Positions 8,822-23,155 of a stretch of DNA of 64,000 bases are shown here, piece after piece. The notes under the pieces are model-generated. The model did no database searches. It was not told where the DNA came from and worked only from the letters and a program-made list of their open reading frames with translations. Origin of the DNA: an uncultured delta proteobacterium (lineage in GTDB: Bacteria; Myxococcota; Myxococcia; Myxococcales; Myxococcaceae); assembly GCA_963771175.1 (NCBI GenBank), contig CAVYSY010000033.1, positions 1 to 64,000 on the forward strand, in the 5' to 3' direction. Position 1 is the stretch's first letter; each line of letters starts with the position of its first letter. The translations under genes and the position numbers were made by a program.

Positions 8822-8897
<76 letters not shown>

Positions 8898-8967
8898 ACG
8901 CCGGAGCCGGAGTATAGCGCCCGGGCGGTCCGACCGGCGCCCCTGGTCGGCCCGTCGCCGCCGGGCG

Positions 8968-9180
8968 TCAGCCGCCTTCGTGCGCCTGCGGACCCGGCGC
9001 CGACCCCTCGTCCGGCAGGACGACCACCTCGTCCGCGCAGGTGTCGCAGCGATAGAGCCTGGCGCCCTTCGCGAGCGCTCGCTCGATGTCGTGGTCGGCC
9101 GGATCGTGATGCTCGCGGCGGGTCATCGGGACGAGCTCGCCGCCGTGCAGGTGGGCGAGCTGGACGCGAATGTCGAACAC
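8968..9180 (-). CDS. Small hypothetical protein with CxxC and His residues (possible Zn-binding)
   Basis: GTG start; FDIRVQLAHLHGGELVPM...HHDPADHD...LYRCDTCADEVVV. Confidence 0.55.
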   Translation of the reverse strand: MFDIRVQLAHLHGGELVPMTRREHHDPADHDIERALAKGARLYRCDTCADEVVVLPDEGSAPGPQAHEGG

Positions 9181-9271
9181 GAACTCCGTCGTGTGATCAG
9201 GGAATGGTAGCGGCCCGACGACGCGGGGCCTGCATTGGGTGCCCCGTCTACGCGCCGCGCACGGCTCGCCT

Positions 9272-10928
9272 CTACGGCGTGCGGCCGGGTAGCTCGACGC
9301 CGCCTCCCAGCCGACGAAGACGCCGTCCACGTCGAGGCGCTGACCGCCGTCGGTGGCGACGAGAGGAGGTCCGGCCGTCCCCGTTGTCCAGCGCCAGGCG
9401 ACGGTCACCACCGGACAACCCCACGAACAGCCCTTTCGGACCGTCGAGGCTCGAGACGACGGCGTAGCGGTTGGAGCCTCGAATCGCCCGATCGGCAGCT
9501 TGCCCTGGTCGGGAGGGAGGAGCATGAGCACGCTCGTCGCATCGGACGCCCGGCGCGGCATCGAGCGCGGTCGGCGCACCAAGCGTCGCCGGGTACCACG
9601 TCGCGACGTGGTGCCGTCGGCGGTGAACGTGGTGACGAAGCAGCCGCTCGCGCTCGGCCCGTCGTCGCACGCCTCGCCGAGGGTCGACCCGTCGGCGCCG
9701 GTCGCCCGGCCCATGCCGGTCGCCGGGTAGGTCTCGGGCGTGCCGGCGGTGAACGTCCCGTCCAGCAGCGAGACCCAGCCCGGCTCGACGGTGTCGCCGC
9801 TCGTCCGCGCGGCGAGCAGACCGGTGCCATCGAGCGTCCAGACGTATCGATCGCCGCTGCCAAGCCGCCGGCGCCTCGCAGCTCGATGCCGTCCGCGAGC
9901 GAGATGCCGGTCGCGGTGGCCGCCGCCAGTTAACGAAGAGTGGGCCGTTCGCCGTCCGGACGACGAGTCGTCCGCACGGTCCCCACACGAGTCCCGGGCA
10001 TCCGGGCCACGACGTCGTCGATGACCATCCCTGTTCCCGACGGGTCGTAGAGGTCGACGATGGCGACGACGCGGTGTCTCCCTCGGGTTGGGTCACGATC
10101 GGGACCGGGAGCCGACCGAGCTCACTCACCTTCGGCGGGTATACCCCGAGCTCGATGGTGCCGTCGGGCATCGCGTTCCGCGCGATCGTCGCCAGGGTCG
10201 TCTCGGCGCCATCGGGCGGCACGGCGACGACCGCGAGGGACTCGTCGGCTCCCTCGCGGACGAGGATCGCCGTGTCCGGGTCCGCCGCTCCCAGCGGCGC
10301 GCGAGCCGCCGGGGACGGTGAGGTCGCCCGGCGCGACCACGACGATGCCGTGCCAGATGGTCTGGCCGTCGACGGGGACGGTCAGCGACTCGGCGGCCAT
10401 CTTGGAGTGAGGTCGCGGGCGACGCGATCCGTCGCAAGGCACCGGCGCCATCGTCCCGCTGGACCGTCGGTGAGGATCATGTTGCGATCCGAGCCGAGGT
10501 CGCCCGGGCCGAGGCATACGACGCGATGTCGTACCGACCGACCTCGCAGATCGAACCGATCGGCGTCACGGCCGGGTTCGCGGACCCGCTTGGTCCGCCC
10601 GTCTCGTCGATCACGACCGTTCCGGCCGGCGGGCTCAACGACGGCAGGGCGCCACTCGGCAAAGGCGAGACAGCCGACGGCGTCGGGGCGGCGACCGGGA
10701 CGGTCCGGCCCAGTCCGCGGACGAGCAGGAACCCGCCACCGACGGCCAGGGCGACGACCGCGGCGGTGGCGAGAGGCGCGACTGCGGCGCCGCGCCCGCT
10801 CTCGTCGGCCTCCCAGTCGCGGCGCGGACGACGGTCGGATCGACCTCGATCGGGCTGGCGTCCGCCTCGCCGTGAAGGCTGCGGCGCGAACGAGCGCCTC
10901 GGGCTCGGCGAGCGCTGCGGTCAGGCAT
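9272..10928 (-). CDS. Membrane-anchored hypothetical protein downstream of the ECF sigma (anti-sigma-like layout; heavily frameshifted)
   Basis: ATG 10928 overlaps the sigma stop codon. A hydrophobic anchor near 10,730-10,790 is followed by beta-rich fragments in several frames. Confidence 0.45.
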
Positions 10929-11200
10929 GTCGCACCTCCGCGGTGCCCGGCGCCTCGTCCGCCAGCGCGGTGCGCAGGTGGTCGAACGCGGCCTGGAGCT
11001 GGGACTTGACGGTGTTGGGGCTGACGCCGAGCGCTTCGGCGACCCCCTCGACCGACAGGTCGGCGTAAAAGCGAAGCACGACGGCAGCACGCATGCGGGG
11101 TGGCAGTGCACCGATGGCGGCGACGACCGCGGCGCGCTCGGGATACGCCGCCGAGCCCGCCGCCACCACCGACCTCCGGCACGACGTGCAGTGGCACGAC
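10921..11200 (-). pseudogene. ECF sigma-70 factor, region 4 only (5' part cut off at the junction)
   Basis: AIGALPPRMRAAVVLRFYADLSVEGVAEALGVSPNTVKSQLQAAFDHLR is a sigma70 region 4.2; no region 2 upstream. Confidence 0.8.
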
Positions 11201-12214
11201 CGCGCCTCCTCGTCCGACATGCGTCTGCAGCACCCCTCCATCAGCCGCCGCCACGCCCAGCTCACCCGCCGCGGCGACTGGCTCGCCCTGAAGGATCTCG
11301 GCAGCCAGAACGGCACCTTCGTCAACCGTGTCCGCCTCACCGGGGAGCTCGAGCTCCATGCCGGAGATGAGGTCGCCCTCGGCAATGCGCTCCTCCGGGT
11401 GCGTGGACCGGGAGCCACCCCCGAGCCCCCTCGGGCCGCCCCCAGCCGGACTCCCTCCTCGCTCCGCGTGGGCATGAGCGCCCGCCGCGTCGTGCTGCTC
11501 TCCGTCGCTACCGGCGCCCTGTTGGCCGTGTTCATCACGCTCGCCCTGGTGCGGCTCATGAGAGGGAGAGCTGAACCCGCCTCCGCCCCCGTGGCGCGGC
11601 ACGCGGCCCCCCAGATCGAGGAGGCACCTCCCGTCCCCGAGACTCCATCAGCGGACCTCGCGTCCCCGGAGGGCGCTCAGGACCCGGAGCCCTCTCCCGA
11701 GCCTGTCGCGGAGCCCGTCCGGGAGGAGCAGGTTCGTTCCGCGCCCCAGACGCGCCCCTTGAGCGCCCAGGCCATCGCCAACAAGTCCGGCGCCACGAGG
11801 GAGAGCACCCCCAGGGAAGCTCCGACCCGATCGAAGACAACCGGGAACCGCTCCGTCCAGGCAACAGGGAAGGCCTCCGTGAGGGCCCCTGCCTCCTCGC
11901 CTGATTCCTCGGCCCCCGCCGTCGAGGACGCGGAAGCGGAAGCCGAGGCCCGCACCCGCTACGAGGCCGGAGATGTCGGCACCGCCCTCGCGATCGCCCG
12001 CCGGGCCCACCTCGATGCGCTCTCCGACCAGCTCGTCCGATTCCAGGCCGCCTGGGCCGCGGGCAGTGCCGCCCTGGAGGCCGGTGATGCCCCCACCGCC
12101 CTCCAGCAGCTCACCACCGCCCAGGAACTCGACCACGAGCTGTCCCAGGGCTGGAGCCGCTACGCGCCCCGGATTCGCGCCGCCGTGGAGCGGGCCCAGG
12201 CCCTGTCACGGTAG
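11201..12214 (+). CDS. FHA-domain membrane protein, myxobacterial type, 5'-truncated
   Basis: FHA motif RASSSDMRLQHPSISRRHAQL...LKDLGSQNGTFVN, then a TM helix, a Pro-rich linker and a helical C-terminus. Confidence 0.8.
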   Translation, partial: RASSSDMRLQHPSISRRHAQLTRRGDWLALKDLGSQNGTFVNRVRLTGELELHAGDEVALGNALLRVRGPGATPEPPRAAPSRTPSSLRVGMSARRVVLLSVATGALLAVFITLALVRLMRGRAEPASAPVARHAAPQIEEAPPVPETPSADLASPEGAQDPEPSPEPVAEPVREEQVRSAPQTRPLSAQAIANKSGATRESTPREAPTRSKTTGNRSVQATGKASVRAPASSPDSSAPAVEDAEAEAEARTRYEAGDVGTALAIARRAHLDALSDQLVRFQAAWAAGSAALEAGDAPTALQQLTTAQELDHELSQGWSRYAPRIRAAVERAQALSR

Positions 12215-12261
12215 ACCTGGGTCTCCAGGAAGCCTTGCTCGCAGTGCTATCCTCCGAGCCC

Positions 12262-13158
12262 ATGCTCCCTCCTCGGAAGCCGCTGCGCGCAGGCCATTGG
12301 GTCGTCGCATGCCTGATGATGCTCGGGCCCGCCATCGCTCCGGCCCAGGCCTCCGAGGCAAGCACCCCCGCCCTCACCGCCTCGCCTCCGGGAGCGCTGG
12401 TGGGAGTGGTGGTGGCCAGCCGGACCTTGGAGCTCGCGCCCAAGGTGGAGGGCCGCATGGAGGTGCTGAAAGTGCGCCTGGGCGAGCGCGTCTCCGCCGG
12501 TCAGGAAGTGGCCCTGCTGGAGCTGGAGCCCTTCGAGCTCGAGCTCGCCGCGCGGCTGGCCAACCTCAAGGCGGCCGAGGCCGACCAGGCCAAGAACAGC
12601 CTCCTCCTCACCCAGGCCCAGCAGCGGCTGGAGCGTGAGAAGCGCATCCGCGAGTACTCCGCCGCCGAGGCGCTGGAGATGGCCGAGACCCAGGTGGCGC
12701 TGGCACTCGCCGACGTGGAACTGGCCAAGGCCCACACCGCCGAGGCCAAGGCCCGGTTCGACCTGGCCGCCAGCAACCTCGCGAACGCACGGGTGCGCGC
12801 CCCCTTCTCCGGCGTGGTGGCCGAGGTCCTCCTTCAGCCCGGCGTGCTGGTGGGACGGACCACGCCCCTGCTGCGGCTGGTGAGCGACGAGCTGCGGCTG
12901 CGCTTCGCCGTGCCCGCGGCCCAGTCGGGCAACATCCGCCCCGGCACCGAGGTGCACGTGCGGCTGGAGGCCCTGAACATCACCGTGACGGGCACCGTGG
13001 ACAGCATCTCACCCGAGCTCGACCCGGCCTCACGACACCTGCGGGCCGAGGCGAAGCTGAACGTCCCGGCGGCCCAGCGTGGGCGCATTCCCTCTGGACT
13101 GCTCGCCCAGGTGGAGCTGCGCCCCGCCTCCGGCAACATCGCCTCGACCGTGCCCTGA
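12262..13158 (+). CDS. Efflux periplasmic adaptor (membrane fusion protein)
   Basis: Lipoyl-like half motifs (LAPKVEGRMEVLKVRLGERVSAGQ ... VRAPFSGVV), a coiled hairpin, and ISPELDPASR. Confidence 0.85.
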   Translation: MLPPRKPLRAGHWVVACLMMLGPAIAPAQASEASTPALTASPPGALVGVVVASRTLELAPKVEGRMEVLKVRLGERVSAGQEVALLELEPFELELAARLANLKAAEADQAKNSLLLTQAQQRLEREKRIREYSAAEALEMAETQVALALADVELAKAHTAEAKARFDLAASNLANARVRAPFSGVVAEVLLQPGVLVGRTTPLLRLVSDELRLRFAVPAAQSGNIRPGTEVHVRLEALNITVTGTVDSISPELDPASRHLRAEAKLNVPAAQRGRIPSGLLAQVELRPASGNIASTVP

Positions 13159-13344
13159 GCCCTCCACGAGGAAATACCTCCGGGGTGCGAGTCACTTCCG
13201 CGGGGCCCGCGAAGGAGGCAGGTGACCTCCCTCCCGGGCGCGAACTCGCGCAACTTGTACAATGAGTGGACAAGTTCGCGCGCCGCGCGGCCGGGAGGCC
13301 GGCGGGTCTCGGCGGACAGAGGACCCTCCGGGCGCGGTCTGGAG

Positions 13345-13371
13345 AAACCTGTCCGACAGTCGGACAGGTTT
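13345..13371. repeat. Perfect 27-bp palindrome (REP-like)
   Basis: AAACCTGTCCGAC-A-GTCGGACAGGTTT between convergent genes. Confidence 0.85.
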
Positions 13372-13404
13372 TGGAAGAGCGCGAAGCGACCTCCTTCGGA
13401 TGGC

Positions 13405-14793
13405 TCAGCGGCCCTGGGAGATCTTCACCTGGCCGCCCGAGAGCCGCGCCACGTCACCCGGGTTCCACTCCAGCACCTGCGTCTGGAGGCCCCGGCGCGC
13501 GAGCTCCTCGCGCATGAGTGTGTTGCGGCTGGCCTCCGTGGGCTCGCCCTCTCCCCAGCCGATGTCGGTGATGATGTGGCCCACCCCCTCGAAGCCATTG
13601 GCGTAGGGCAGGAAGTAGCGGGCCTGGGCCGCGGCGCACGCATCCACCGCGCCATCGATGCCCGCCGTGGTGCTCTTGAGCTGACCCTGCTGGAACTGCC
13701 GATATAGCCCCCGGAGCTGCTCGAAGGGCACCGCCGCCCAGTAGTGGTTCAGCCCGCCGAAGAAGGGCGACTGGAACTCACGCTGGCAGCACAGCACCAC
13801 GTCCGCCGGGCCGCGTCGCCGGCAGGACTCGGCCAGCACCTCCGCCATGCCGCCTTCCGGGTCCGCCCCGCTGTCCACCAGCAGCACGCACGAGAAGTCC
13901 TCGGTGTTGATGCGGTAGCAGTTGCCCCAGCTCCTCAGGCCCTCGCGCAGCCGGGGGCCCTCACGAGTGGGCTGCTCGCCGTAGAAGGGCAGGATGTCGA
14001 TCTCGATGTCGCCCACCTTCACCGTCTCGCCCCAGGCGGCGGCCTGGACCGACTGACCGCACGCGCGCACCGTGGCCGCGAAGTCCTGAAAGGTGAGCAG
14101 GCTCACCCGAGGCACGCGCGGCACGAGCACCGGCAGATTCGGCCGGGCCAGGTGCGCCAGGAACGAGGGCATGTGCCAGTGGTCCACGTGGCTGTGGGTG
14201 ATGGCCACCACGTCCACCATCTCCGGCCGCAGGTTGTTGGGGGCCCCGCGCATGTTCAGCAACCGGCGCTGCATGCCGATGGGGTCCACCAGGATGCCCG
14301 TTGTGCGCGAGCGGATGAGCAGCGAGGCGTGCTCGCGGCGGTAGATGCCGGGCCCGTCCGGCTCGGGCCACTGGAGCCCGGGAGTCGGAGCCTCCACGAG
14401 CCGTTCAATCCACGCCTCGTCATCGAAGGGCCAGGCCTCGCGCACCTTGCGCGGGTCGTTCGTATGGGTGGCCGCACGGAGGAACTCGGCCACCACGGGC
14501 ACCGCCTCCTCGGGCAGCTCGCTGCTCAGGCGCTCCTCCCCATCCTGGAAGACGACCCACCAGGTGCTCTTCTCGGGGAATAGCACGCGGTCCTCGACGA
14601 GGAAGCCACCGTCCTCCGCCCCCTTCGGGCGCAGCACCGGCTGGGGGAGCAGCGTGTTGGCGCGCTCGAACAGCTCCCGCGTGGCCTGGGGGTCCAGGTT
14701 CGCGCGGATCATCCCGTTGAGCAGGTCACCGAACTTCACCCCACCGAGGTCCGGCAGTGGCACCAGGTCCACGATGAAATTCGGAGAGAGCAT
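13405..14793 (-). CDS. Metallo-beta-lactamase-fold enzyme, CmlA-like; candidate lanthipeptide tailoring enzyme
   Basis: HASLLI..LVDP, ITHSHVDH (HxHxDH), PFYGEQ, LLVDSG, PYANG. It starts 7 bp after the PCAT stop. Confidence 0.8.
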   Translation of the reverse strand: MLSPNFIVDLVPLPDLGGVKFGDLLNGMIRANLDPQATRELFERANTLLPQPVLRPKGAEDGGFLVEDRVLFPEKSTWWVVFQDGEERLSSELPEEAVPVVAEFLRAATHTNDPRKVREAWPFDDEAWIERLVEAPTPGLQWPEPDGPGIYRREHASLLIRSRTTGILVDPIGMQRRLLNMRGAPNNLRPEMVDVVAITHSHVDHWHMPSFLAHLARPNLPVLVPRVPRVSLLTFQDFAATVRACGQSVQAAAWGETVKVGDIEIDILPFYGEQPTREGPRLREGLRSWGNCYRINTEDFSCVLLVDSGADPEGGMAEVLAESCRRRGPADVVLCCQREFQSPFFGGLNHYWAAVPFEQLRGLYRQFQQGQLKSTTAGIDGAVDACAAAQARYFLPYANGFEGVGHIITDIGWGEGEPTEASRNTLMREELARRGLQTQVLEWNPGDVARLSGGQVKISQGR

Positions 14794-14799
14794 TGTCGG

Positions 14800-17058
14800 T
14801 CACCCCACCTTGGCGGCCCTCTCGGGGGCCGGGCTGCCGGCACTGGTGCGCTCCTGGGAGGACACCAGCTCGAAGTAATAGCCCCGCCTGGACATCAGCT
14901 CGTCGTGCGTCCCCCGCTCGACCAGCCGGCCCTGGTTCATCACGAGGATGACGTCCGCGCCCTGGATGGTGCTCAGCCGGTGGGCGATCACCACGCGCGT
15001 GCAGCGCAGTTGCGAGAGGGCATCCTGCACGGCGCGCTCCGTCTTCGCATCCAGCGCGTTGGTGGCCTCGTCCAGCAGGAGGATGGCGGGGTTGTGCACC
15101 AGCGCCCGGGCGATGGCGATGCGCTGGCGCTGGCCACCCGAGAGCGAGACGCCCATCTCGCTGAGCACCGTCTCGTAGTTCATCGGCATGGCCACGATAT
15201 CGTCGTGCACCTGGGCGCGCTTCGCGGCATCCACCACCTGCTCCAGCGGCAGCGTGGGGTCCGAGTAGGCGATGTTGCGGCGGATGTCCCCGCGGAAGAG
15301 CGAGGGGCTCTGCAGCACCACGCCCATCTGCTGCCGCAGCTCCTGCAGGTCCATGTCCTGCAGCGACACGCCGTCATAGCGGATGGCGCCGGCGGTGGGC
15401 AGGTACAGGCCGAGCATCAGGTGAGCCAGGCTGGACTTGCCCGCGCCCGAGCGGCCGACGATGGCCACGAACTGGCCCTGCTGAATCTCCACCGACACGT
15501 CCTGCACCACCAGGGGCGCGTGGGGGCTGTAGCGGAAGGAGACGTTCTCCACCTGGATGCTGCCCTGCAGCTTGTGGGTGCGGCGCGTGGTGGCGGGCAC
15601 CTGCTCGCGCGGCGCCTGGAGCACGTCGTCCACTCGCTCCAGGTAGCTGCCCACGAGCTGGAGCTGGAAGGCGGTGGCCACCAGGTTGGAGATGGGGTTG
15701 AGGAAGCTGCCCGCCAGCGCGTTGAGCGCCAGCATCTCGCCCAGGCTCAGCGCCCCATCGAGCACCTGAAGGGTTCCCACCGCCAGGATGGCCAGCGGCG
15801 AGGCCATGCGCAGCGTGCTGGCGATGGACTCGGTGAGCGCCTGCAGGCGCCCGCGCTCCAGCGAGACGTTGAGCACGTCCACGTAGAGGTTGGACCAGTG
15901 CTGCACGGCCCGGTCCTCCAAGCCCATGGCCTTGAGCGTCTGGATGCCGGTGAACATCTCCACCTCGAAGTTCTGCGAGCTGGCGCTCACCTCGAGGTTC
16001 TTGGACATCAGCTCGCGCTGCTTGCCCCGCGCGAAGAGGAAGACGAGCACCTGCAGCAGGGCCAGCCCCACGGCCAGCAGGGCGATCTGCCAGCTCCCGG
16101 CGAACAGCAGCGCGAGGTAGACCACGACCAGGCCGCCGTCGAGTACCGCGGACAGCGCGCCCGAGGTGAGCAGCTCGCGCACGGTGGCGTTGCTGTTGAG
16201 CCGGCTCATCAGGTCGCCGGCGGAGCGCACCTGGAAGAAGGAGAACGGCAGGTGCACCAGGTGGTCCAGGAAGCCCAGCGTCAGCCGGGTATCCATCACC
16301 GTGCGCAGGTGCAGCAGCAGATGGGCACGCACCAGCGAGGAGATGAGCTGGAAGCCCACCAGGGCGCCCATGCCCGTGGCGAGAATGGCCAGCAGCGACC
16401 TGTCCCCGTTGGGCAACACCCGATCCACCACCGCCCCGGTGAGCGACGGCAGCGCCAGGGCGAAGAGCTGCAGCAGCAGCGACATCACCGCCACCCGCCC
16501 CAGGATGGCGCGCGCCTCCGACAGCAGCCGCAGGTAGCGCTCCGAGCCGCGGGCCGACGAGCCCTTCTGGAAGGACTCGGAGGGCTCGAAGAGCAGCGCG
16601 ACGCCGGTGAAGGACTTGCGGAACTGCTCCAGGGTGATGTGGCGGCGCCCGAAAGACGGATCCACCACCTGCACGCCCTTGCGCGTCAGCTTCTCGAAGA
16701 CGATGAAGTGCTTGAACTCCCAGTGCAGCACGGTGCCGGGCTCGAGCAGGTGGATCTGATCCATGTCCACCTTGGCCGCCCGTCCCAGCAGGCCGAAGCG
16801 CCGGCCGGCCTCGAGGATGCCGCGAGCGCTGATGCCCTGCGTGCTCAGCCCGGCGGCCACGTGGATCTCATCCAGCGACACCTTGCGGCCGTAGTAGCCC
16901 AGCACCATGGCCACGCACGCCGCCCCGCAGTCCACGTTGGTGACCTGCGCCACGTAGGGGATGCGCCGCTGCCGCAGCCGCTCGCCCAACCGCTGGAGCG
17001 CGGGAAAGCGCTCGCCGAGCGAGGGCGACTCGGGCGTCGGCGATTCGGAATCAGCCAC
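14800..17058 (-). CDS. lanT: Peptidase-containing ABC transporter (C39 peptidase + TMD + NBD), LanT-type
   Basis: C39 triad motifs QVTNVDCGAAC / HWEFKHF / VVDP; Walker A GRSGAGKS, signature LSGGQRQR, Walker B LLLDEAT. Confidence 0.95.
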   Translation of the reverse strand: MADSESPTPESPSLGERFPALQRLGERLRQRRIPYVAQVTNVDCGAACVAMVLGYYGRKVSLDEIHVAAGLSTQGISARGILEAGRRFGLLGRAAKVDMDQIHLLEPGTVLHWEFKHFIVFEKLTRKGVQVVDPSFGRRHITLEQFRKSFTGVALLFEPSESFQKGSSARGSERYLRLLSEARAILGRVAVMSLLLQLFALALPSLTGAVVDRVLPNGDRSLLAILATGMGALVGFQLISSLVRAHLLLHLRTVMDTRLTLGFLDHLVHLPFSFFQVRSAGDLMSRLNSNATVRELLTSGALSAVLDGGLVVVYLALLFAGSWQIALLAVGLALLQVLVFLFARGKQRELMSKNLEVSASSQNFEVEMFTGIQTLKAMGLEDRAVQHWSNLYVDVLNVSLERGRLQALTESIASTLRMASPLAILAVGTLQVLDGALSLGEMLALNALAGSFLNPISNLVATAFQLQLVGSYLERVDDVLQAPREQVPATTRRTHKLQGSIQVENVSFRYSPHAPLVVQDVSVEIQQGQFVAIVGRSGAGKSSLAHLMLGLYLPTAGAIRYDGVSLQDMDLQELRQQMGVVLQSPSLFRGDIRRNIAYSDPTLPLEQVVDAAKRAQVHDDIVAMPMNYETVLSEMGVSLSGGQRQRIAIARALVHNPAILLLDEATNALDAKTERAVQDALSQLRCTRVVIAHRLSTIQGADVILVMNQGRLVERGTHDELMSRRGYYFELVSSQERTSAGSPAPERAAKVG

Positions 17059-17998
17059 GGTCGCCTCCCCCGAGGTACTCGAGAATCGGCAGCAGCGTCA
17101 CCCAGCCGTTGCGCGCGCGCACCTTCACCCGGGCGATGCCGGGCATGCCGGTGTAATAGCTGTAGGTGCGGCCATCGGACTGGAAGGTGCTCGAGGGCAG
17201 CCTCGCCGACACCGCCACCACCGGGCCCTGCAGCATCACCGCGTCCGCCAGGCCCGGCCCCAGATAGCGCCGCACCTCGGCCGGTCCCACCAGCTCGTCA
17301 CTGATCGCCGTGACTTCCAGCTCCTGGTACTCGTAGGGAAAGCCCTCCAGCTCCAACCGGAAGCCCTGCCCCGGTTTGATCATCGGCCGGTAGCGGCCGG
17401 GCACCAGCGCCAGCGCCCAGGACTCGGAGCCGTCCCGGAGGACGGAGACCACCACCTCGCCCGCGCTCAGGAACTGACCCTCGCGCACGCGCACGTCGTT
17501 GACCTGCCCGTCGAACGGGGCCCGCAGGGAACGCTCCTCCAGGCGCGCCTGGCTCGACTCGAGCTGGGAGCGCAGGGCCGAGAGCGCCGCCTGCGCGGTG
17601 GCGTTGGAGGGATTGAGCAGCGAGGCGGCGAGCTGGTTGCGGAACTCGTGCTCCAGGCGCTCGCGCTCCCCGGACTCCACGCCCGAGTACAGCTCCACCA
17701 GCGGCTGGCCGGCCTTCACGTGCTGCCCGCGGCTCACCCACACCCGGCTCACCCGTCCACCCGCGGTGGCGGTAACGTCCTCCAGGCCCTTCACCCGCAC
17801 CAGCAGCGGGCCCTCGGCGTAGTCGTTGATGTCGATGAGAGCCAGACCCACGCCCCCCACCACCACGAGCGCCACGACAATCCAATACGCACTGCGCGCC
17901 CACACCGGCGAGAGCTGGAGCAGGCTGCCCCGGGCCTCGGGCCGAGCATGGTGCGTCAGCGCTTCCTGCCGGAAGAGCTGCTGCGGGTTGTCGCTCAT
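17051..17998 (-). CDS. HlyD-family secretion adaptor
   Basis: LFRQEAL N-terminus, single TM, lipoyl-like halves (TAGGRVSRVWVSRGQHVKAGQPL ... LRAPFDGQV). Overlaps the lanB stop and the lanT start. Confidence 0.85.
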   Translation of the reverse strand: MSDNPQQLFRQEALTHHARPEARGSLLQLSPVWARSAYWIVVALVVVGGVGLALIDINDYAEGPLLVRVKGLEDVTATAGGRVSRVWVSRGQHVKAGQPLVELYSGVESGERERLEHEFRNQLAASLLNPSNATAQAALSALRSQLESSQARLEERSLRAPFDGQVNDVRVREGQFLSAGEVVVSVLRDGSESWALALVPGRYRPMIKPGQGFRLELEGFPYEYQELEVTAISDELVGPAEVRRYLGPGLADAVMLQGPVVAVSARLPSSTFQSDGRTYSYYTGMPGIARVKVRARNGWVTLLPILEYLGGGDRG

Positions 17999-20900
17999 GT
18001 CCCCTTCTTCATCCGCGCCAGACGCGAACGATACAGCCGCACCAGGAAGTCATGGAAGATGAGCTCCTGGGCCCGCTGGTCCTCCACCATCATGCGATTG
18101 ATGTGCATGTGGAGGTAGCTGTCGGCCAGCCGCTCGACAGGCACGGAGAGACGTCCCTCGCGCTCGGCTTGGAGCAGGCGCTCCACCACCGGGCGTAGCC
18201 GCTCGCTCCGACGTCTCAGGGCCACCAGCCCCGCCTGGGCCAGGCCCCGGGCATCCGGCGGCGCCGTCAGCAGCGTCTCCAGGCTCCGGCTCTCGCGGCG
18301 GTAGCGCTGGCCGAGCTGCTCCTCGAAGCGCTTGTCCACCCAGAACTCGGCATGGAAGGCGGCGCGGGCGCGCTCCTCCACGGCCAGCTTGCCCTCCAGC
18401 GTCAGCCCCAGGTCGTCCAGCAGGGCGTCCATGCCCTTGAGGACCATGCGCCAACGCAGCTCGGCGCCCGCGTCACCGGGGTAGGCCTGGAGCATGGCCA
18501 GCACGGCCTCGCTGTCCGCTGTGAAGAGTTCCTCGGACAGCTCGACGCCGACGGGGCCGCCGTAGCGCTCCACCTCGCGCTCGTAGGTGTCGAGCTGCAC
18601 GCGCCAGCCCGTCCCCTCCTCCAGACTGGCCGCGCAGGCGGCGCGCAGCGCGGGCCACACCTCCGCGTCCAGCCGCGCGGGCGTCCCGTGGAAGCGCAGC
18701 CGCACGTGCTCCTCGGGGTCCTTGTAGCGGAGGAAGAACCAGCGGTCCGCCGCACCCGAGCCCATCACCTTCTGGATGGCCTCGCCCAGCGTGCTGCCCA
18801 TCAGCCGGTCCAGGGAGGCCGCGCCCCCGTAGAGCTTGAGGTACAGCCACTCGGAGCCGGGCGGGAATCGGCGGGGGGTGGAGCGCGGCACCGGCGCCGG
18901 AGCCGGGCGGGCCGGCTGCTCGGCGGGGGCCTGACGCACGAAGGGCACCACCACCTCGTGTACGTAGCGACCCTCCCTGCCCTCCACACACAGCGCGTCG
19001 GGCCCGGGGAAGAGCTCGTCCAGCAGGATACGCGAGCGTCCCTTCACGAGCTGGACGAACGTCTCCACGCTCAACGCGTTGTCCAGGTCCACGGGGAGCT
19101 GGTTGTCACCATCGCGCAGGCTCACCCACCGGGGCAGCCTCGCCTTCGCACGGAAGCGCTGCACGGCGGCGAAGCGCGGAGCGCCCTCGGTCTCGCCCCA
19201 CTCCCGCAGCGTCTTCCCGTCCACGGCCCAGCACGCCAGCGAGAGCACCGTCCGGCCACACACCACGCGCGGCAGGAAGTTGGCGTGACTCAGGGGCCCC
19301 CACTGGAATTTCAGGCCCATGCGGTGCGGGTTCTGCAGCATGCAGAGGAAGCGGTACACGCCCAGGCCGTACGCCGAGTAGTTGTGCGCGTTGGTCAGCC
19401 GGGGGATGACCTCCTTGCCCAGCCGTTGCGAGCGCAGCACCACGCGGGTGCCCTCGACGGAGACCCACAGGTCCGTCAGCGCGATGCGCTCCAGCCCGTC
19501 CGCGCCCGACTCCCCGAGGAAGGCGATGTCATGGGGCCGCAACCGGGGCCGGCAGATGACGTTGCCCATGCGGCCCTGCGGCAGGTGGACGATCTCCGCG
19601 AAGATGGCGTCCGGCCGCAGCGCCTCCTCGGCGCGCAGGTGCTCGCGAACGAAGCCATCCAGCGCCTCGTCCCCGTGACAGAAGCGCCCCAGGTAGATGG
19701 CGCCCGAGGGGCCATGGAGGTTCTCCAGCGCCACCTGGAACTCGCCCCGGTCCACCGCCTCCGCGGAGCTCGCCACCACCGTGCCCACCACTCCGAAAGC
19801 ATCCGGCAGCGGGCACGGCTCCGAGGTCTTCATCGCCGCCAGGTCCTCGGCGGTGAGCACCAACTCGTGCCCTCCGGTGGCCCAGAGGGACTCCAGCCGG
19901 CGCAGCAGGTGCTTGTAGCGGGGCTCCCAAGTCACCTGCTCGCCACCGCCACCGCCCTCCTGGGGGAAGTGGAAGCCCGCCAGCAGCGGGCCCGTGGCCA
20001 TGCCCGGCGACCTGGAGACGGCGAAGCCGATGCCGCTCTCCTCGTCCAGCGCCTCCACCAGCGGCACCGAGCGGCCCTCGTAGCGCTCCAGGAAGCGGGA
20101 CGCGGAAGCGGTTGAGCGGATGGTCCTCGCGATTGGGCGGGGTGATGGACCGCAGCACCTGGACGCCGTGCAGCAGCGCGTCCACCACGCGCGAGGAGAG
20201 GCTGGCCTCGGGCGCCGGGCGGAACATGTCCACCTGGAAGAGGCGGGGCAGCTCAACGGGCGTGGGCAACGCCTCCAGGCCACGTGCCACCTCGAGGTAC
20301 GCCGTCGGCGCGTTGCCCGGGCCCCCGAGTCCAGTCGGGACAGCTGCTCGTGGACGCCCGTCAGCCGCTGTCGCACCTCGGCCAGCCCGGGGATGCTCGC
20401 GCGAGCCCTCGATGAGGTGGGGCACGGGCTCGGCGCCGGTGACGGGCGCGGCCCAGGTGGGCACCAGGAGCTGCTCGGATACCAGCGTCTCCACGAAGGG
20501 GCGGGCATCCTCCAGGGTGATGTCGGGATCGCTCGCCACCAGCGCGACCGCCAGCTCCTCCAGCTTCGCGCCACCGCGGGCCCGCTCCAGCGTGGCCTCC
20601 AGGTAGGGCGAGGGCTCCACGCCCACCAGGTGGTAGGAGCGATCGCGCCCGCGCACCCGCATCTCCAGGTAGCGCAGCCGGCCACCGGAGCGGTAGAGGC
20701 TGGAGTTGGGCACGTAGCGCAGGGCGTCTCGCACCTCGGGGGTGCCGCGCACCTGCTCCACCAGGGCGCAGACGTAGTCCATGTCCAGCCGCGTGTGGCG
20801 GCGGATGGCGGTGCGCTCGGAGATGTGCAGCCGGGTGTGGGGGCCGATGCGGCCCACGGAGTTGCCGGCGAAGAGGCCGAAGGGCGTGGCGCGACCCGCC

Positions 20901-21514: not shown

Positions 21515-21676
21515 TTACTCCGCGATGGTGATCATGGTCAGGGGGCAGCCACCGGTATCGGTACCACCCACCACGCCATCGAGAAGGGAGACCTCGGAGT
21601 CATTCAGGGTCTTCAGCGTCTCCTTCTTGAGGGACAGCTTCTTGTTCAGCTTGGGCTCGTTGGTCTTGTTGTCCAT
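21515..21676 (-). CDS. lanA: Lanthipeptide precursor peptide (53 aa)
   Basis: MDNKTNEPKLNKKLSLKKETLKTLNDSEVSLLDGVVGG-TDTGGCPLTMITIAE; GAGGAG RBS, LxLxKx5L motif, double-Gly site; lies between lanC and lanB. Confidence 0.9.
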   Translation of the reverse strand: MDNKTNEPKLNKKLSLKKETLKTLNDSEVSLLDGVVGGTDTGGCPLTMITIAE

Positions 21677-21835: not shown

Positions 21836-23155
21836 TCACGTGCCGGACGTAGTGCACGCGAGGGTCGCCCATCCGCATGAGCCAGGCCCCTGCTTGGAGA
21901 TCCGCTCAGGCGTGAGCGAGAAGAGGAAGGCCTGGTCCCAGTCCGGCTCGAGGTCCGAGACGGCGGCGATGAGAGCGAGCGCCGTCCCGGCGGCGCCGAA
22001 CTGGAGAGCGGCCACGGCGCGCTCCGGCTCCTGTCCGAACTGTCCGAGCAGGTAGCCCCCAACGCCGACGCCGGGCTGGCGCAGGGCCAGCGTGTGCCGC
22101 AACCAGAGCACGGCGGCCTCTTCGAAGACAGGCACGCCGGAGGCGCGGAACAGCCGGTGGAAGACGTGGGCAGTGCCCGACGTGCCACAGCACAGGTTGG
22201 CACTGCGCGGCAGGGGCTGGTCCAACGCCTCGCGCGCCACCGCGATGGCCCACGCCAGCGTGCGGGCCTGCCATTCGGGGTGGCCCCACACCCGGGCGGC
22301 CCACCACAGCACCCCGACGATGCCGGGATTGCCGGCACACCAACTGAAGCGCGCGTAGGGGTCGGCGAAGGGCTCATCCCCGTGCAGGTAGAAGGGAAAT
22401 CGCGGAGGGCCCTCCGGCCGGGCCTGGCGCGCCACCCACCGGAAACCCTTCTCGAGCAGGGCCTGGGCCCGCTCCCGGGCCACCCCGTGCGCATGGGCCG
22501 CCGCGAGCACGGCGAGCACGACGGGCACCCCGTGGGCCACGCCCATCATGTACAGGCCCCGGGGGAAGGCGGCCTCGCGCCCGAGGAGGGCCCAGTGGGA
22601 CGGCGGCATGGGCCAGGAGCTGCCGTCGTCGAGGGGCTGGGCCAGTTCCTCCAGCGTCTCCACCACGCGCTCCAGCAGCCGGCGCCCGGAGGGATGGGGC
22701 ATGCGCTCGAGGGCATACAGCCCGAGGCCCGCCAGTCCATCGCGGATGTCACAGGGATGCGGGAAGGGCGAGCGGCCCAGCTCCCGCTCCACCAGCTCGT
22801 CCGTGGCCGCACACAGCTCCTCCACGTCCAGGCCGGGGTGGTTCGCGGCGATGCGGGCCGCCGCCCAGCCCACGCCACTCAAGCCCACGTGAAGGCCGAG
22901 CACGGGCTTGCGCTCGCGGGCGAGGACGAAGAGTTCCGTGGCCCGCTCCAGGCAGACGCCCACCTCGTCCAACAGGCGCGAGTCGGTTGCCCGGGAGGCC
23001 ATGTCGAAGAAGAGCGCGAAGCCGGCATGGCCCGACAGGAGGCCCGCGGGCAGCTTCTCCCGGGGGGTGGCGACCACGTCCGCGACGATGTCCCGGATGG
23101 CCTCCAGGGCTTCCGTCTGGAGGGAACCGGAGAGCAACGGGGTCCAGGTGCGCAT
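21836..23155 (-). CDS. lanC: Lanthionine cyclase LanC
   Basis: GLHVGLSG, DIRDGLAG, GVAHG, SWCAGNPG, NLCCGTSG, GAAG repeats of the LANC-like barrel. Confidence 0.92.
   Translation of the reverse strand: MRTWTPLLSGSLQTEALEAIRDIVADVVATPREKLPAGLLSGHAGFALFFDMASRATDSRLLDEVGVCLERATELFVLARERKPVLGLHVGLSGVGWAAARIAANHPGLDVEELCAATDELVERELGRSPFPHPCDIRDGLAGLGLYALERMPHPSGRRLLERVVETLEELAQPLDDGSSWPMPPSHWALLGREAAFPRGLYMMGVAHGVPVVLAVLAAAHAHGVARERAQALLEKGFRWVARQARPEGPPRFPFYLHGDEPFADPYARFSWCAGNPGIVGVLWWAARVWGHPEWQARTLAWAIAVAREALDQPLPRSANLCCGTSGTAHVFHRLFRASGVPVFEEAAVLWLRHTLALRQPGVGVGGYLLGQFGQEPERAVAALQFGAAGTALALIAAVSDLEPDWDQAFLFSLTPERISKQGPGSCGWATLACTTSGT

Follow-up and report, generated by a model that had tools for sequence, protein, structure and literature searches.

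We analysed a stretch of 64,000 nucleotides from an uncultured delta proteobacterium of the Myxococcaceae (contig CAVYSY010000033.1 of assembly GCA_963771175.1, positions 1 to 64,000; hereafter the window, with a G+C content of about 70%) and, within it, a gene for a metallo-β-lactamase (MBL)-fold protein, P0001, that stands at the end of a lanthipeptide operon. A preliminary description of this DNA had proposed the gene as a candidate hydroxylase of peptides made on the ribosome and modified after translation (RiPPs), related to the chloramphenicol β-hydroxylase CmlA. The coordinates it gave for the gene hold, and the coding strand is the minus strand, which carries a single open frame of 462 aa where the plus-strand translation is interrupted by stops. 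The minus-strand order is lanC, lanA, lanB, HlyD, PCAT (a peptidase-C39 ABC exporter) and finally the MBL gene, whose ATG follows the PCAT stop codon by 6 nt, with a GGTGGGG stretch upstream (Table 1). All parts of a class I lanthipeptide cluster are thus present, namely LanB, LanC, a LanA with its leader, and an exporter. The LanA leader scores 21.6 bits against the lant_leader_L1a model, whose cut-off is 22, and the predicted core following its Gly-Gly is TDTGGCPLTMITIAE. As had been claimed, Pfam and NCBIfam detected no nonribosomal peptide synthetase (NRPS) among the neighbours of the MBL gene in the operon, which encode PCAT, HlyD, LanB, LanA and LanC.

Table 1. Features of the lanthipeptide operon and of P0001 in the window, and the related loci (L numbers) sorted by biosynthetic context
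Feature	Position or loci	Strand	Evidence and remarks
FHA-domain protein	11093-12214	plus	adjoins second adaptor gene; in L001 too, 81% identity
Second HlyD/RND-type adaptor	12235..13158	plus	Pfam and NCBIfam; convergent with MBL gene
MBL-fold gene (P0001)	13405..14793	minus	462 aa; stop codon 13405-13407; open reading frame and translation
MBL-fold catalytic domain	13408..14355	minus	residues ~147-462; H200-x-H202-x-D204-H205, E273, D307, C336-x-R338, Y397-A-N-G
N-terminal domain	14374..14793	minus	residues 1 to ~140; a strand, then three helices, a beta-hairpin and three more helices; matches no known family or fold
Motif HASLLI	residues 155-160		
Motif LVDP	residues 168-171		
Motif ITHSHVDH	residues 198-205		
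Motif VLVPRVPRVSL	residues 222-232		
Motif PFYGEQ	residues 269-274		
Motif VDSG	residues 306-309		
Motif PYANG	residues 396-400		
PCAT, peptidase-C39 ABC exporter	14800..17058	minus	Pfam Peptidase_C39, ABC_membrane, ABC_tran; NCBIfam NHLM_micro_ABC1 E 4.5e-189, below cut-off
HlyD-family membrane-fusion protein	17051..17998	minus	Pfam HlyD_D23, HlyD_3; overlaps PCAT start
lanB, class I lanthipeptide dehydratase	17995..~21229	minus	Pfam Lant_dehydr_N, Lant_dehydr_C; two frames
lanA precursor, 53 aa	21515..21676	minus	open reading frame; double-glycine leader; NCBIfam lant_leader_L1a E 1.8e-4
lanC cyclase	21836..23155	minus	Pfam LANC_like E 2.2e-25
Class I LanB loci	L002, L004-L007, L009, L011, L013, L015, L026 (split), L027, L028		
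Class II LanM loci	L008, L016, L018, L023, L033, L039; cyanobacterial L034, L036, L040-L043, L045		
Class III/IV synthetase locus	L029		
NRPS loci, 6/47	L017, L020-L022, L024 (Collimonas, Burkholderia); L032 (Sorangium)		with type II thioesterase and Cupin_8/JmjC
Radical-SAM loci, 2/47	L019, L030		
PCAT-only loci, 3/47	L001, L003, L031		L001 and L003 contigs <10 kb
Nif11- or 2OG-cassette-only loci, 4/47	L035, L038, L044, L046		2OG, 2-oxoglutarate
Loci without recognised context, 6/47	L010, L012, L014, L025, L037, L047		

The translation of P0001 contains all seven motifs listed in the preliminary description, in the order claimed, and some 140-150 residues do stand ahead of its MBL domain. The sequence has neither a signal peptide nor a membrane segment. 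Pfam returned generic MBL models only (Lactamase_B_2, E 7.4e-10), and no NCBIfam model matched above its cut-off, faint matches to RNase Z and PRK00685 falling far below theirs. The AlphaFold2 model is confident (predicted local distance difference test score (pLDDT) 93.2, predicted template modelling score 0.92). A sequence database search, in which 8,000 candidates were scored, yielded 224 homologues at E<=1e-3, nearly all of about 465 aa and named solely 'MBL fold metallo-hydrolase' or 'UlaG' (many JGI entries bear the latter name). For conservation and for a profile search of the PDB we used an alignment, A1, of 39 homologous sequences with 39-92% identity; H155, D170, H200, H202, D204, H205, E273, D307 and Y397 are invariant in all 39. 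Since these columns are invariant and the homologue profile matches FrsH and CmlA (see below), the motifs are not a product of chance. When the same profile was run against 1.84 billion representatives, the number of clusters identified was 259 at E<=1e-30, rising to 448 at E<=1e-10 and to 1,267 at E<=1e-3. The family is modest in size and distinct.

The preliminary description had likened P0001 to CmlA, and both profile search and structure comparison find that its nearest solved relatives are indeed FrsH and CmlA. In a phmmer search of the PDB with P0001, CmlA was the top hit (E 1.7e-4), followed by FrsH, and the A1 profile placed FrsH (E 4.6e-12) and CmlA (5.4e-11) ahead of NAPE-PLD (2.2e-4), the best-scoring hydrolase, and UlaG (0.3). 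With the P0001 model, Foldseek gave E-values of 1.7e-18 for FrsH and 7.4e-18 for CmlA, a lead of six to seven orders of magnitude over the next entries, 3bv6 and UlaG (1.7e-11 for the entry directly behind CmlA). VIA-align superposed 333 residues of FrsH (Z 27.8, root mean square deviation (rmsd) 3.7) and 351 of CmlA (Z 24.7, rmsd 4.0) on the model, in each case over a span of model residues 1-451. In addition, the third set of ESM Atlas clusters nearest to P0001 bears CmlA_N, with a score of 0.96. The CmlA motifs that the preliminary description had listed proved roughly right, the printed alignments showing vgHAcv..lvDP, ITHNHQDH, VLVPK, LPFLGEH, AADS and VYAMG.

Like CmlA from the chloramphenicol pathway of Streptomyces venezuelae (PDB 4jo0, 5kik, 5kil), P0001 is built of two domains, the C-terminal one having the MBL fold, and it shares that layout with FrsH from the FR900359 pathway (PDB 8a90), which like CmlA is a non-heme diiron β-hydroxylase. 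Common to the three are HxHxDH, the motif-3 Glu (E377 in CmlA), the bridging Asp (D403) and YA(M/N)G. Identity in the structural alignments is only 14-21%, however, and the gene settings differ, P0001 being encoded in a lanthipeptide/PCAT operon and enzymes of the CmlA/FrsH type beside NRPS genes. In the available portion of PMC7794379, FrsH and CmlA are described as working on amino acids tethered to a thiolation (T) domain, and CmlA as the sole member of its family characterised at that time. Our best reading of these comparisons is that P0001 is a distant cousin of the CmlA/FrsH diiron β-hydroxylases, belonging to a sister lineage.

The hydrolases UlaG, 3bv6 and NAPE-PLD also share the fold of the MBL domain with P0001, VIA-align giving Z scores of 24.6 for UlaG (2wyl, 254 aligned, rmsd 3.0), 24.7 for 3bv6 and 22.9 for 4qn9. 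On that domain alone 3bv6 and UlaG therefore equal CmlA, and because of this parity the fold by itself cannot tell an oxygenase from a hydrolase; the profiles and the extent of alignment do tell. Such a parity would suit an account in which P0001 is an MBL-fold hydrolase using Zn, Mn or Fe, whose likeness to CmlA reflects descent only; it might trim or open the peptide, as a peptidase or esterase, or might act in self-protection. The database names of all homologues and the faint RNase Z and PRK00685 matches would fit that account as well, as would the loss of the carboxylate equivalent to CmlA E430 (discussed below). The profile E-values, however, favour CmlA and FrsH by at least 7 orders of magnitude, and Foldseek does so by 6-7 orders (3e-10 for hydrolases of the UlaG/NAPE-PLD type against 1e-18 for CmlA/FrsH). 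Moreover, alignment reaches past the MBL domain for CmlA and FrsH only, the hydrolases showing none to the N-terminal domain of P0001, and where enzymes of the UlaG/NAPE-PLD type have His at motifs 3 and 5, P0001 has E273 and R338. We consequently regard a hydrolase as unlikely.

To compare metal sites we relied on printed alignments of residue positions, in which the CmlA chain index was found to equal the literature number plus 2; the positions alone were checked in this way, and the CmlA residues concerned, E430 included, are ones that we take to be iron ligands. H200, H202, D204 and H205 of P0001 fall in the columns of CmlA H305, H307, D309 and H310 (ITHNHQDH). E273 occupies the column of CmlA E377, where the entry for the E377D mutant (5kil) has its D, so that the Glu-for-His replacement at MBL motif 3 noted in the preliminary description stands, and it is invariant in 39/39 homologues. 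D307 corresponds to D403, the Asp of AADS, when aligned by way of a distant homologue (L078) and a CmlA-family protein encoded at a related Sorangium locus (L032, 15780-17372), which matches Pfam CmlA_N at 5.8e-83, FrsH at 1.2e-123 and CmlA at 8.3e-109. The conserved ligand residues are also invariant in an alignment of eight sequences that includes this L032 protein.

The resemblance ends at the seventh ligand. CmlA E430 sits in FIGM-E-S, seven residues past a conserved Asp, and its column in P0001 is held by Arg338, on the same strand and 7 residues past D331 (D331-VVLCC-Q-R338). At least 90% of the homologues keep R338 and C336; the neighbouring E339 varies. Six of the seven metal-ligand positions of CmlA are thus retained and the seventh is an Arg, so the fully CmlA-like ligand set expected from the preliminary description is not borne out, and the metal site of P0001 differs from that of CmlA. 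From sequence, the metal centre could be dinuclear in modified form, or mononuclear. D204, H205 and D307, the remaining ligands of the second site, are still invariant, which argues for a retained second metal. This invariance also speaks against a second alternative, in which P0001 is a mononuclear oxygenase, with H200, H202 and E273 as a 2-His-1-carboxylate site and Arg338 holding a substrate carboxylate, or an oxygenase whose reaction is something other than hydroxylation, be it desaturation, epoxidation, cross-linking or oxidative cleavage. The conserved Arg338 in place of the second-site Glu is consistent with this alternative, as is the conservation of C292 and C336. Furthermore, many of the relatives' clusters have separate hydroxylase genes (Cupin_8/JmjC, 2OG-Fe(II), Asp/Asn hydroxylase), which would allow P0001 a reaction that is not a simple hydroxylation. 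We nevertheless consider this alternative improbable.

At the level of sequence, the N-terminal domain of P0001 also sets it apart from CmlA. It comprises about 140 aa, compared with 232 positions in CmlA_N (PF18456), and this Pfam model has no match to P0001 at E<=0.01, the L032 protein serving as a control that scores as given above. Folded alone, the domain is predicted with a pLDDT of 79.8, and the model has no significant structural neighbour by Foldseek (best E 1.1) or in a wide VIA-align search (best Z 3.8). In the latter search, an entry for ThcOx that bears a RiPP recognition element (RRE), a leader-binding winged-helix domain, reached Z 3.1. These fold searches speak neither for nor against a CmlA_N or an RRE fold. 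Prediction of a complex between P0001 (A1) and LanA (alignment A4) gave scores of 0.21, 0.32 and 0.20 (the mark being 0.32), which likewise point neither way. Binding of the leader by the N-terminal domain is a guess.

In order to define the contexts in which relatives of P0001 occur, we scanned genomes and retained the best 80 of 192 confirmed loci. The family proper, as we define it, comprises 47 of these (L001-L047), with E<=1e-36 and most of the matches covering the N-terminal domain; their annotation combined tblastn, for which a set of cluster proteins served as queries, with Pfam searches of the predicted genes. The nearest public contig, L001, belongs to an Archangium sp. metagenome-assembled genome and is 95% identical, so the source organism is a myxobacterium. 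A gene for a lanthipeptide synthetase (LanB, LanM or LanKC) lies in the flank of 26 of the 47 loci. Homologues are thus linked to lanB or lanM and PCAT genes, as the preliminary description had proposed to check, and they lie mostly in ribosomal-peptide clusters, but the link is not exclusive to RiPPs, since 6 of the 47 are NRPS loci. The order HlyD-PCAT-MBL is retained in L001-L007, L009, L011 and L016, and tblastn located the second adaptor gene beside the MBL gene in L001, L002, L004-L007 and L009 too.

The tightest gene linkage of the family is to HlyD-PCAT, not to LanB or LanC, and family members stand beside very different synthetases or, in six loci, beside none. These observations could be taken to mean that P0001 does not act on LanA and is tied to the HlyD-PCAT module in some other way, for instance through a small molecule or another exported peptide. 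Against this, the NRPS, cyanobacterial LanM and radical-SAM loci have the gene without an adjacent PCAT, and the P0001 sequence offers neither a signal peptide nor a membrane segment; we judge such a role to be very unlikely. Because of the same PCAT-free loci, the common denominator of the family loci is the biosynthesis of peptide natural products, mostly ribosomal ones, rather than export. In addition, a family member of 869 aa, P0223, carries a C-terminal fusion to a domain of the PCMT type (protein-L-isoaspartate O-methyltransferase, a protein-carboxyl methyltransferase), which hints at a shared peptide substrate.

Several further loci are of note in their own right. L032, from Sorangium sp. 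So ce315, brings together at 8865-18366 a family member with a short N-terminal region, the CmlA homologue bearing CmlA_N, a Cupin_8/JmjC protein and an Asp/Asn β-hydroxylase; as the two MBL lineages coexist there, they are presumably not redundant. For the Burkholderia NRPS loci we considered identity with the fragin ham cluster and rejected it, HamA being heme-oxygenase-like and HamD having an A-T-R arrangement in the part of PMC5878181 that describes them. Beyond the family proper, L048-L080 (e.g. L050, L064, L074, L080; L052, L053, L059) represent a distant subfamily of 500-550 aa with 31-38% identity over residues 155-400, which retains HxHxDH, GEQ and DSG. Some of these loci have YcaO/TfuA, radical-SAM or small LanB-like genes nearby, the LanB-like gene adjoining the MBL relative in L049, L064 and L080, and several Myxococcus and Archangium loci have no biosynthetic context.

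Every precursor peptide associated with the related loci has a leader with a double glycine, which belongs to the lanthipeptide, the NHLP or the Nif11 type, and the leader of the window's LanA is conserved in 12 related peptides. Among 13 aligned myxobacterial precursors (A4), nine have Thr directly after the Gly-Gly, that of the window (21560-21562) included. No target residue can be named, however, since the relatives' cores share none beyond this partial Thr+1, and the earlier proposal that Asp2, Pro7 or an aliphatic residue is hydroxylated is without support for the same reason. At two loci, a second precursor-like peptide with the same type of leader and a Cys-free core (VSLAID...TRTL) lies beside the second adaptor gene (L002:12618-12797(-) and L004:12555-12734(-)); it has no counterpart in the window. 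The cyanobacterial loci show a recurrent cassette of LanM, MBL (~485 aa), 2OG-Fe(II) oxygenase, an alcohol dehydrogenase (ADH)-like gene and a second MBL-fold protein. At L034, L036, L041 and L045, each of the seven precursors with a Nif11 leader that were listed ends in K-W, and some are Cys-free; this suggests chemistry at the C-terminal Lys-Trp.

P0001 resembles CmlA and its relatives lie in RiPP clusters of several phyla, so that it is a promising candidate for a peptide-tailoring enzyme of a new kind. Our main reading, to which we assign a probability of roughly 0.5, is that P0001 works in the cytoplasm as a non-heme-iron oxygenase and modifies peptides with double-glycine leaders ahead of their export. 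We infer that its metal is iron, that it carries out O2-dependent oxidation, that its substrate is a peptide and that the steps follow the order given here. P0001 would be made from the same transcript as the HlyD protein and the PCAT exporter; among the 21 runs listed, none is an RNA holder. LanB and LanC would dehydrate and cyclise the double-glycine precursor LanA with its leader still attached, and P0001, as a metal-dependent and most likely non-heme-iron enzyme, would act on leader-bearing LanA, oxidising, and most plausibly hydroxylating, a residue of the core. PCAT would then cleave after the Gly-Gly and export the peptide.

A number of observations weigh against P0001 being such an oxygenase. 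Besides the Arg at the E430 position, the lack of a CmlA_N match and the equal Z scores of hydrolases on the MBL domain, a Glu at motif 3 is not exclusive to oxygenases, the alkylsulfatase SdsA1 having one as well. Pfam and NCBIfam revealed no reductase gene in the operon, 6 of the 47 loci lack a recognised biosynthetic context, and the cores of the relatives' precursors are very diverse. Finally, lanB is broken in frame in the window assembly by three 1-nt breaks near 20395, 20318 and 20101; tblastn with the intact LanB of L005 placed the three frame switches within ~300 nt, from ~20400 to 20095. Compared with the window, contigs of near-identical DNA from three related runs differ at these sites by -1, +1 and -1 base (20394/20396, 20318 and 20101/20102), one of them being a single 33.5-kb piece with 24 substitutions over 3.9 kb. 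In close relatives, therefore, lanB runs through in a single frame. The breaks, confined to the window assembly, are either sequencing or assembly errors or real mutations.

Taken together, the analysis confirms the initial observation and partly supports its interpretation: P0001 is a CmlA-related MBL enzyme in RiPP clusters, but one that lacks two features by which CmlA is defined, the E430 ligand and CmlA_N. More broadly, and more tentatively, at somewhat less than even odds, the uncharacterised family as a whole (~259 clusters at 50% identity, E<=1e-30, from Myxococcota, Bdellovibrionota, Proteobacteria and Cyanobacteria) may derive from the CmlA lineage, may have dispensed with the carrier-dependent N-terminal domain and exchanged one iron ligand (Glu to Arg), and, equipped with a novel N-terminal domain, may place an undescribed oxidative modification directly on ribosomal peptides (lanthipeptides of classes I, II and III/IV and peptides of the Nif11/NHLP type).

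Open-access full-text literature yielded no RiPP pathway for which an enzyme with an MBL fold or of CmlA-like type has been characterised, which is not proof of absence. The oxidative tailoring enzymes of lanthipeptides include CinX-type 2OG Asp hydroxylases and cytochromes P450. Like the P0001 gene, the genes for these enzymes and for CoiH lie inside lanthipeptide clusters, and the enzymes oxygenate the modified core; their folds are unrelated to that of P0001, and none is an MBL fold. CoiH, which forms a sulfoxide in a lanthipeptide, is described in its abstract as having a new fold that contains no metal site (bioRxiv 10.64898/2026.08.26.747419), and on account of this unrelated, metal-free fold we rejected it as a relative of P0001. 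SmaO/SmaX, which convert Asp to aminomalonate, were likewise rejected because of their unrelated folds, as far as the excerpted account in PMC12186529 describes them.

The P0001 family is a solid lead for genome mining. CmlA-type enzymes appear solely as partners of NRPS carrier domains in the available text of PMC7794379, and a sister family acting on ribosomal peptides would, if the reading is true, constitute a new class of oxidative RiPP tailoring enzymes, of consequence for both biosynthesis and engineering. With an Arg where CmlA has a Glu ligand, the site could have iron chemistry of a new kind. If true, the reading would further illustrate how an oxygenase that depended on a carrier came to be redirected to leader peptides, and it would provide a handle with which to mine several hundred uncharacterised clusters.

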